From Candidatus Saccharibacteria bacterium HGW-Saccharibacteria-1 (GTDB taxonomy: Bacteria; Patescibacteriota; Saccharimonadia; Saccharimonadales; Saccharimonadaceae), in assembly GCA_002839415.1 (NCBI GenBank), contig PGXZ01000001.1, forward strand, positions 57,259-121,258: DNA of 64,000 nucleotides, written 5' to 3'. Numbering within the stretch: the stretch's first letter is position 1; the number at the start of each line of letters is the position of its first letter. The notes under the pieces are model-generated. The model made no database searches and was not told the DNA's origin. It saw only the letters and a program-made list of their open reading frames with translations. The translations under genes were made by a program, and so were the position numbers. Below are positions 6,513 to 6,662 of the stretch, piece after piece.

Positions 6513-6662
6513 ATTTACGAGATATTGATCGGTTCTACGACTTTCGCTAAAAGCGAAATTAGTCGTAGGTTCGGTGAAGCGATTGAAGTAAAAGAAATCA
6601 CCGAAGGTATTTTCTTTTACGAATGAGCGGAGGAGGCCTAGGCCGATATCCTACCTCGCCAA
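6513..6662 (+). repeat. tRNA-echo element 1: broken copy of the tRNA-fMet T-arm/acceptor 3' half with a 74-nt structured insert
   Basis: GTCGTAGGTTCG (6562-6573) is identical to tRNA 6446-6457. ATCCTACCtCGC (6648-6659) compares with tRNA 6459-6471. The insert carries GAATGAGCGGAGG, shared with the element at 13208-13350. Confidence 0.6.

Follow-up and report, generated by a model that had tools for sequence, protein, structure and literature searches.

tRNA-matched units with a folded module in the T-loop slot recur behind Saccharibacteria tRNA genes and may be miniature integrative units

INTRODUCTION

Why would the 3′ half of a tRNA gene recur, cut open in its T-loop, a short way behind that same gene? 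The question is raised by a stretch of 64,000 nucleotides (nt) from Candidatus Saccharibacteria bacterium HGW-Saccharibacteria-1 (contig PGXZ01000001.1, positions 57,259 to 121,258 of the forward strand; hereafter the window), in which an earlier note, made from the letters alone, had described a broken echo of the initiator tRNA (tRNA-fMet) behind its gene. Here, this locus was analyzed together with related loci. The unit that holds the echo, ∼190 to 250 nt in size, is a member of a large, undescribed, Saccharibacteria-wide family, and it is real rather than a chance arrangement, because ∼109 matches to a covariance model were obtained and the echo fits the adjacent tRNA locus by locus. In our judgement, there is about an even chance that it is a miniature, non-autonomous, non-coding integrative unit that targets the tRNA T-loop.

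RESULTS AND DISCUSSION

Anatomy of the two units in the window

Direct reading of the sequence confirmed the split echo of the tRNA-fMet 3′ half as it had been described, including the 74-nt insert, the mini-hairpin, and the placement of GAATGAGCGGAGG. The unit behind tRNA-fMet (copy A) is composed of the following features.

6399..6476 (+), resident tRNA-Met(CAT) of the initiator type (ARAGORN; Rfam RF00005, 62.7 bits)
6477..6512 (+), intrinsic terminator with A-tract, stem at 6484-6503, and T-tract (terminator scan)
6505..6541 (+), antisense copy (b′a′) of the tRNA 3′ half (direct comparison, 23/37 identical)
6542..6558 (+), connector mini-hairpin TTTCGC-TAAAA-GCGAAA (sequence reading)
6560..6573 (+), sense echo "a", made up of the last variable-loop bases, the T-stem 5′ strand, and TTCG (contains a 12-mer identical to 6446-6457)
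6574..6647 (+), module E, the 74-nt insert, GTGAA...CCGAT (covariance model R1, 94.1 bits, E = 8e-23)
6648..6661 (+), echo "b": AT, then CCTAC (6650-6654) for the 3′ strand of the T-stem and CTCGCCA for that of the acceptor, the latter decayed (sequence comparison)

The resident gene has the C1/A72 mismatch typical of initiator tRNAs, and the portion copied is its 3′ half, comprising the variable loop, T-arm, and acceptor 3′ strand. Its GTCGTAGGTTCG (6446-6457) is repeated exactly at 6562-6573, and its ATCCTACC..CGC (6459-6471) returns as ATCCTACCTCGC at 6648-6659 with one indel. The base of the terminator abuts the CCA end of the tRNA, and this terminator is homologous to that of the empty ortholog L153 (L plus a number labels a comparison locus throughout). 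The antisense segment is in register with the terminator stem, and its best-kept part is CTACGAC (6535-6541), complementary to GTCGTAG; the earlier note had recognized this complement but had taken it as 7 nt, whereas it belongs to a 37-nt diverged antisense copy of the whole 3′ half. Within module E, a conserved 5′ box G(C/T)G.AGCGA is followed by hairpin P2 (6588-6620), GAGCGGAGGAGGC (6625-6637), hairpin P3 (6635-6644, with 6635-6637 pairing with 6642-6644), and a 3′ GAT, and the whole is closed by the T-stem (6565-6569 with 6650-6654). The 8-bp stem TTCGGTGA/TCACCGAA that had been proposed for the insert is present in copy A but is not conserved, the family fold using P2, P3, and the closing T-stem. 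In a near relative of the window organism, the substitutions C6637T and C6643T both convert G-C to G.U within P3. Reads of related strains contained no empty-site joint at the copy A locus.

The claim of a homologous copy behind the elongator tRNA-Met, adapted to that tRNA, also held, with the unit lying at 13210-13349 on the minus strand (copy B).

13392..13468 (−), resident elongator tRNA-Met(CAT) (ARAGORN; Rfam)
13350..13396 (−), 20-bp terminator hairpin that takes in the ACCA end of the tRNA (terminator scan)
13322..13349 (−), antisense segment (sequence comparison)
13305..13321 (−), connector hairpin TTTTTGC-CGTA-GCAAAA (sequence reading)
13210..13304 (−), distal arm: sense TAGTCACAAGT, module E, and echo TCTTGTCGCT (R1 match at 13210-13301, 48.4 bits, E = 5e-10; alignment)

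Copy B is fitted to its own tRNA-Met through GTCACAAGT and TCTTGTCGCT, the latter echoed at 13222-13213. Its antisense GTTGAACTTG (13335-13326) is complementary to CAAGTTCAAC, which agrees with the tRNA T-arm CAAGTTCAAT at 9/10 positions. The module E of this copy (13293-13224) has a divergent 5′ box, the segment GAATGAGCGGAGGTGGC, and a P3 of GGC/GTC that includes a G.U pair, and it shares with copy A the segment GAATGAGCGGAGG, found at 6621-6633 in the former copy and at 13239-13251 (−) in this one. Nothing comparable was found downstream of the remaining three tRNAs in the window. As a separate observation, tRNA terminators here begin at the CCA end of the tRNA itself (CCA plus A-tract ... 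T-tract plus TGG), both at 6477-6512 and 13350-13396 of the window and at many related loci; thus, the tRNA 3′ end is built into a bidirectional hairpin that is long and perfectly paired (20 bp in copy B).

A Saccharibacteria-wide family with one layout

Homologs were sought by scanning sequence patterns against one genome per species, and further copies were added by a metagenome scan. A first 16-base motif gave mostly chance matches in high-GC genomes, and a longer gapped pattern was used instead; the family counts given here rest on the hand-annotated covariance model R1, which matched 62 + 47 = 109 copies in Saccharibacteria genomes and metagenomes. True homologs were almost confined to metagenome-assembled genomes of Saccharibacteria (Saccharimonadales). 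The earlier note had asked whether every further copy sits 3′ of a tRNA gene; 81 of the 109 copies lie at most 330 nt downstream of such a gene (71 forward and 10 inverted), with the R1 match, including the echoed T-stem 5′ strand, starting mostly 74 to 96 nt from the tRNA end, and many of the remaining 28 are cut by contig ends or masked sequence. Host tRNAs include those for Ser (all four isoacceptors), Arg (gcg, tct, and tcg), fMet, Met, Gln (ttg and ctg), Asn, Tyr, Trp, Lys(ctt), and Val(gac). Several copies may occur in one genome, for instance, three behind three consecutive tRNAs in L073 and two within the 64 kb of the window, and contigs frequently end at copies. In Rfam 15, only tRNAs passed, even at a permissive E value of ≤10, and matches to the element itself were noise (snoR31, 21.6 bits against a threshold of 60). 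No description of the element was found in the literature.

The full order of the unit is tRNA 3′ half (sense), terminator, antisense copy, small hairpin, sense T-stem 5′ strand, module E, and sense T-stem 3′ strand with acceptor. Module E is preceded by the variable-loop end, the T-stem 5′ strand, and TTCG, and directly after its end (GCCGAT-AT; GCCGATAT) come the T-stem 3′ strand and the acceptor 3′ strand, often with CCA, of the tRNA upstream, and the two T-stem strands of the echo are kept apart by 70 to 115 nt of module E. The echo is exact in L001, L004, L125, L126, L127, L133, and L143, has one mismatch in L122, and is decayed in the window, L124, L135, L136, L137, and L140. It was detected at ∼30 of 167 tRNAs and is in every case preceded by the end of a cargo module; among these ∼30 echoes, none lacked the module, which would have been an insert-free full triplication. 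Moreover, the echo is mostly followed by a second terminator unlike the resident one (L004, L122, L125, L127, L143, and L161).

The antisense copy consists of ∼35 nt after the terminator and covers the whole tRNA 3′ half, such that the tRNA 3′ half, terminator, and antisense copy can form one giant hairpin. The match is 23/37 in register in the window, perfect over ∼32 nt in L151, and long also in L004, L021, L143, and L161. The antisense copy is particular to module-bearing tRNAs: scored by local alignment (a fixed-position box search under-counted), the antisense match had a median of 11.5 at module-bearing tRNAs (n = 81) versus 5.5 (n = 131; Mann-Whitney p = 4e-20). The connector between the antisense and sense copies is often TTTTGC-nnnn-GCAAAA, at different tRNAs. 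In L133, the duplicated block extends 24 nt beyond the CCA, which indicates that its source was DNA or a precursor rather than a mature tRNA. The suggestion in the earlier note of a tRNA-derived mini-element like a short interspersed nuclear element agrees with the tRNA-derived arms and the multi-copy state, but the block that runs past the CCA (in L133 and in L257, described below) argues against copying of mature tRNA. Finally, three loci, namely, L192 (5400-5533, −), L154 (388-470), and L043 (2480-2569, −), have the antisense copy only, neither hairpin nor cargo nor echo being present; they represent either remnants or the initial stage of unit formation.

Module E has a covarying, strand-specific fold

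Because the family is diverse in the length of P2, whose variants were misaligned by MAFFT, RNAalifold was replaced by the hand-annotated covariance model. Module E (∼75 to 100 nt) consists of a 5′ box GGCGTAGCGA, a P2 variable in both length and sequence, the invariant GAGCGGAGGAGGC, a P3 of 3 to 11 bp, and a terminal GAT. In the 109-copy alignments, 91.5% of cells were paired in the annotated structure (T-stem, 2-bp helix, outer and inner P2, and P3), and changes on both sides were seen in 19/21 pairs (239 cells), a result reached by 0/500 shuffles; slid controls gave 40 to 54%. Covariation in the T-stem is inherited from the tRNAs and is no proof of a fold, and the support that counts comes from P2 (8/8 + 2/3 pairs) and P3 (3/3 pairs). 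Building a covariance model from all copies, as the earlier note had proposed, therefore upheld a fold for module E.

G.U/U.G pairs outnumber A.C/C.A pairs by 87 to 35 overall and by 61 to 17 within E; this excess indicates that the strand with GAGCGGAGG is the folding one, either as RNA or as single-stranded DNA. The unit is predicted to fold as a single strand with z scores of −6.3 and −6.5. Tandem G.A-type motifs flank P2, and the junction strands (GAGCGGAGGAGGC) are invariant across genomes whose LpdA proteins are ∼50 to 80% identical. In some genomes, the P3 loops are alike in all copies (L073/L139, L248, and L257), pointing to recent intragenomic copying or conversion, while some subtypes follow the locus instead.

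A likeness between the E 5′ box and tRNA 5′ ends was also noted: CGGCGTAGCG (window 6572-6582; L143:7262-7290) is identical to the 5′ end of some tRNAs, e.g., TCCGGCGTAGCGCAG of tRNA-Asn, the matching tRNA part being acceptor positions 3 to 7, U8, A9, and the start of the D-stem. At Ser loci, GCGGAGG of E can pair with the echoed acceptor strand CCTCCGC. This likeness may hint at the origin of E or may be chance. A hammerhead-type or other ribozyme, a K-turn box C/D guide, a T-box, and a retroviral-type primer-binding site were considered as well and were rejected, their defining motifs all being absent.

Empty sites, exchangeable cargo, and stacked units

The orthologous lpdA/tRNA-fMet locus was compared across 80 Saccharibacteria. 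A unit is present behind tRNA-fMet in a minority of these loci and the rest are clean tRNA-terminator-flank arrangements, so the empty sites for which the earlier note had suggested looking do exist in relatives. Two filled/empty pairs (window versus L153 and L157 versus L165) differ by an indel of ∼190 to 205 nt, and neither has a short target-site duplication. A unit that brought its own terminator and an insertion behind the native terminator are circular permutations of each other, which the filled/empty comparison alone cannot separate.

At this same locus, E is forward in the window, L148, L160, L172, and L198 and inverted between the same echo halves in L151, L156, L157, L163, L170, L184, and L207. 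The cargo junctions are symmetric on the palindromic T-loop (TTCGAA): E is located 3′ of TTCG or TTTG on either strand of it, with constant junctions and with the hairpins present. The slot may also hold other cargo, of at least two unrelated families. One, E2 (∼100 to 130 nt, ending in ...GCGGGGTCRC..GTGACCRA), occupies it in L161 (behind tRNA-fMet) and L262/L145 (behind tRNA-Ser cga), and a third module, E3 (∼85 nt), is found in L257 behind tRNA-Arg(gcg); L130 and L021 likewise hold cargo unrelated to E.

Units are stacked at several loci. In L257, tRNA-Ser(tga) and terminator 1 are followed by antisense, hairpin, a, E, and b; after terminator 2 come a second antisense copy, other cargo, and a partial b, and the array ends with a 103-nt exact repeat (a, E, and b) and terminator 3. 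The locus thus contains three copies of the tRNA 3′ end, and the outermost b and its AACA trailer agree exactly with the resident b and AACA. Such an array is the pattern expected of repeated integration, each event displacing the earlier 3′ end and terminator. A displaced trailer and second terminator also occur in L161, and older, truncated stacks of partial modules, each followed by an echo, were seen in L021/L074, L001/L093, L043, L123, and L198. Moreover, one unit carries genes: in L277, tRNA-Ser(gga) with its terminator and antisense copy is followed by 3.1 kb of open reading frames (ORFs) and then by a, E, and b, this b deriving from another Ser(gga) allele. The ORFs encode a protein of 521 amino acids (aa) without a Pfam match, a 129-aa Zn-ribbon-like protein, and a wHTH-NUDIX protein; homology between the Zn-ribbon ORFs of L069 and L277 was considered and rejected. 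In L062 (1984-2128), module E lies in the T-loop of a tRNA-Gln-like pseudogene whose anticodon has been altered to TTA and whose acceptor 5′ strand is parted from the D-arm by 29 inserted nt.

A candidate mechanism

What could place such units behind tRNA genes? Among the three explanations offered in the earlier note, att sites or scars of a small T-loop-targeting element fit best, because of the locus-matched echo, the empty sites, the serial and nested units with displaced 3′ ends, and the gene-carrying island. The part of that explanation that does not stand is the scar, since the insert is a conserved folded module; moreover, the unit includes an antisense copy of the tRNA 3′ half, and no integrase was found in the ORFs examined. 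We infer recombination itself, a single-stranded intermediate, and a trans-acting enzyme, as follows. The unit would comprise a tRNA 3′ end (T-loop to just past the CCA), a terminator, an antisense copy, a hairpin, the sense T-stem 5′ strand with TTCG, and the cargo E, and it would recombine within the stretch that this 3′ end shares with the tRNA gene, leaving the gene intact. The earlier tRNA 3′ end would be pushed downstream and persist as the echo directly behind E, and repeated events would stack units, with the newest nearest the tRNA. A single strand of b, terminator, b′a′, hairpin, a, and E could fold as a rod whose sense and antisense arms rebuild a duplex like the 3′ half of the tRNA gene, E protruding as a three-way junction at the T-loop crossover point. 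E and the arms would then act as a single-strand-folded, attP-like attachment module, read by a putative trans-acting recombinase.

Several observations weigh against this reading. The 75 to 100 nt of E split the T-stem strands, while classical attP cores flank an overlap of 6 to 8 bp; a classical double-stranded mechanism therefore does not fit. E occurs in both orientations, and its slot can be taken by the unrelated E2 and E3. The resident T-arm allele (GGTGG/CCACC) is matched by the antisense arm in L151, L156, and L157, where the echo carries another (GCAGG/CCTGC); for this, the integrative model needs later homogenization within the giant hairpin. In the window and L157, no terminator follows the echo, and a deletion has to be postulated there. 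The IMG/VR viral contigs gave only coding or chance matches, with no homolog and no phage attP among them. The recombinase search, in which Pfam was run on the ORFs of L069 and L277 and, in the window, on 40/58 ORFs of ≥150 aa together with a few shorter ones, yielded no integrase (Phage_integrase), resolvase, transposase, or reverse transcriptase among the ORFs examined; there is no TnpA in the window and no ORF inside the mini units. Lastly, the invariance of E in places across very divergent genomes could fit a host-level function equally well.

Saccharibacteria and other bacteria of the candidate phyla radiation have tiny genomes with few recognized mobile elements, and yet approximately one-third of the tRNAs sampled bear a unit. 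If mobile, the units would represent a new form of tRNA-targeted integration, free of genes, whose arms differ according to the tRNA targeted and whose conserved folded module stands at the crossover, and would point to an unrecognized recombinase and to an attachment site that is retargetable by nature. Should E prove to be a host RNA, it would be a widespread, covariation-supported RNA family tied to tRNA genes and without an Rfam entry. Either way, the units cause assembly breaks, and annotation pipelines should mask them, as they will otherwise be called tRNA pseudogenes or ignored.

Other readings of the units

The host-RNA reading, which we regard as possible but rather improbable, holds that E, with or without its arms, is a structured non-coding RNA that is useful to the host and linked with tRNA genes. 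A protein might bind to its three-way junction, or the antisense arm might pair with the adjacent tRNA or pre-tRNA; the tRNA-derived flanks would then be a closing stem and a switchable pairing partner. The strong covariation of the fold, the junction strands that stay invariant despite LpdA identities of only ∼50 to 80%, the tandem G.A-type motifs beside P2, and the one-strand G.U excess are all in keeping with this, as is the occupation of the same tRNA loci (Arg gcg, Ser cga, and Ser gct) in many genomes. Moreover, an antisense-to-tRNA role gives a direct reason for the agreement between antisense arm and resident allele in L151, L156, and L157. However, E is inverted in 10/81 copies, which gives a completely different RNA, and the unrelated E2 and E3 substitute for it; most orthologous tRNA-fMet loci have no unit, copies are stacked and truncated, no promoter-like site was seen at the units, and a strong terminator precedes them. 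As for expression, the core of module E is present in contigs from wetland and peat metatranscriptomes, but at a depth of 2 to 14, compared with hundreds for tRNAs, in data that are unstranded and may include DNA; no RNA runs were found for the window itself. The same low-depth contigs lend something to a further idea of the earlier note, a tRNA-mimic RNA made by read-through, against which stand the strong intervening terminator, the missing 5′ half and tRNA-model match, and the decay of the acceptor echo at many loci.

A more far-reaching version of mobility, to which we give a real though modest chance, is that the unit is a gene-less, self-contained mobile entity with structure-guided, tRNA-programmable integration, in which a swap of arms would retarget it to another tRNA. 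The single strand would be either DNA or RNA, and the three-way junction would recruit a host or distant recombinase.

It is also conceivable, albeit unlikely, that no dedicated mobility is involved. Replication errors at the terminator palindrome, by fold-back or template switching, would have created the sense-antisense-sense arrangement on the spot, and the cargo would spread by gene conversion with the conserved palindromic T-loop TTCGAA as microhomology. Such an origin would account for both orientations of the cargo through the symmetry of its junctions on that palindrome, and it is consistent with the register between the antisense copy and terminator stem in the window, the lack of the usual target-site duplication, the concerted evolution of E within genomes, and the antisense-only loci. 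Against it stand the absence of an insert-free full triplication among the ∼30 echoes and the recurrence of the same precise architecture with tRNAs for 10 or more amino acids (16 anticodons). It also fails to explain a connector (TTTTGC-nnnn-GCAAAA) conserved at different tRNAs, the second terminators and displaced trailers of L257 and L161, or the gene-carrying L277, integration being the better fit for the last two features.

The unit might be thought to encode a guide RNA for an RNA-guided recombinase or transposase, E being the scaffold and the tRNA-matched flanks the programmable guides. A scaffold flanked by locus-specific segments together with a separate complementary segment, so that both DNA strands of the T-arm are represented, would suit such a role. 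We consider it quite improbable, since no IS110-type, TnpB, IscB, or Cas gene lies beside any copy examined, there is no Rfam match, the supposed guides decay in many copies, and E may face either way between its flanks. Least credible of all, to the point of being scarcely tenable, is an intron-containing or split tRNA (pseudo)gene with the 74-nt insert as a T-loop intron: the whole tRNA-Gln-like body of L062 with E in its T-loop resembles this, but that body has degenerated, as its weak anticodon stem, its TTA anticodon, and the 29 nt inserted behind the acceptor 5′ strand show, and is best explained by deletion between two direct repeats of the T-stem 5′ strand with TTCG, all other copies have an echo without a 5′ half, and neither a tRNA-model match, even at E ≤ 10, nor a group I/II intron match was obtained at 6513-6662 or 13208-13350.

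Other features of the window

The neighbors of the units in the window are housekeeping genes (DivIC-like, LpdA-like, beta-glucosidase-like, TilS-like, and FtsH). Farther along, tRNA-Lys(ttt) is followed by a ComEC-family competence gene at 46018-47475 (region 45841-47475), and an RuvC gene is located at 50036-50509; the two genes suggest a capacity for DNA uptake and recombination that is relevant to the spread of the units. At 22338-23369 (+), a 343-aa ORF has an N-terminal Mtd_N domain (E = 7e-15; neighbors at 23462-33409), Mtd being the major tropism determinant, a target protein of diversity-generating retroelements. The paralogous ORFs of ∼345 to 360 aa that come after it (27958-32262) have no Pfam match and share common repeats of 50 to 224 nt. 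A diversity-generating retroelement, an idea prompted by the Mtd_N protein, was rejected, as no template/variable repeat pair was found and no reverse transcriptase was seen nearby. Within a 549-aa ORF without a Pfam match (24797-26446), five tandem 123-nt (41-codon) repeats with 62 to 74% identity were found at 25399-26002, and this ORF probably encodes a repeat-containing surface protein.

Comparison with known systems

Like IS110 bridge RNAs and the omega RNAs of TnpB and IscB, the units have a structured scaffold flanked directly by target-matching sequence; unlike these, they have no adjacent recombinase or nuclease gene, their flanks decay, and the orientation of the scaffold is not fixed. 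A second group for comparison comprises the bacterial non-autonomous palindromic repeats, i.e., the Correia, ERIC, and RUP elements, which resemble miniature inverted-repeat transposable elements, together with REP/BIME. The units share with them a short, non-coding, multi-copy, and hairpin-forming nature, a position just behind genes and terminators, and concerted evolution within the genome. They differ in that their arms copy the adjacent tRNA and vary by locus, the conserved part being internal rather than at the ends, and they have neither fixed terminal inverted repeats nor a short target-site duplication. Miniature elements of the IS200/IS605 type (PATEs) have subterminal hairpins, insert without duplication on the 3′ side of a constant tetra- or pentanucleotide, and are accompanied by a Y1 transposase in the genome; the observations that bear on such a kinship are the hairpins of E, its position 3′ of TTCG or TTTG, and a window free of TnpA.

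Genomic islands offer a further parallel. When an island integrates in a tRNA gene, the gene is split and then restored, and a displaced 3′ fragment is left behind (PMC4383910); an attB within a tRNA T-loop is known (PMC1762012), and tandem islands leave arrays of repeated 3′-end fragments (PMC3146451). In tRNA/tmRNA islands and prophages, such as mycobacteriophage Ms6, the Islander islands, and the tandem ssrA islands of Dehalococcoides, whose tyrosine-integrase att sites include a T-loop sublocation, as in the units, the target gene remains whole, and the far boundary of the inserted DNA is recognizable from a displaced copy of the 3′ end of that gene. The identity block of the units likewise runs from the T-loop to the CCA or just past it, fragments are stacked, and empty sites exist in relatives (most of the 80 tRNA-fMet loci). 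The direct repeat of the tRNA 3′ segment with a restored gene is present, and in L257 the repeat is identical including the trailer. Unlike these islands, the units are mostly ∼200 nt long and gene-free, with an antisense tRNA copy after the terminator and a displaced T-arm split by a folded module of 75 to 100 nt, and their cargo flips or is exchanged; they have no integrase beside an att site and no core sites flanking a short overlap.

Integron attC and the attP(+) of CTX-phi, recombined by IntI and XerCD, respectively, are attachment sites that fold as single strands. The units differ from both in targeting the tRNA T-loop rather than attI or dif and in the large three-way-junction bulge that would stand at the crossover. 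They resemble them in having inverted target-like copies that could fold into a target-mimicking hairpin, in keeping a structure while the sequence of its stems varies, in strand-asymmetric wobble pairs, and in the lack of a classical target-site duplication. It is this resemblance of the stable predicted fold to attC and to the CTX-phi attP that leads us to favor a single-strand-folded attachment module, used by a putative recombinase in trans, as the candidate nature of E and its arms.

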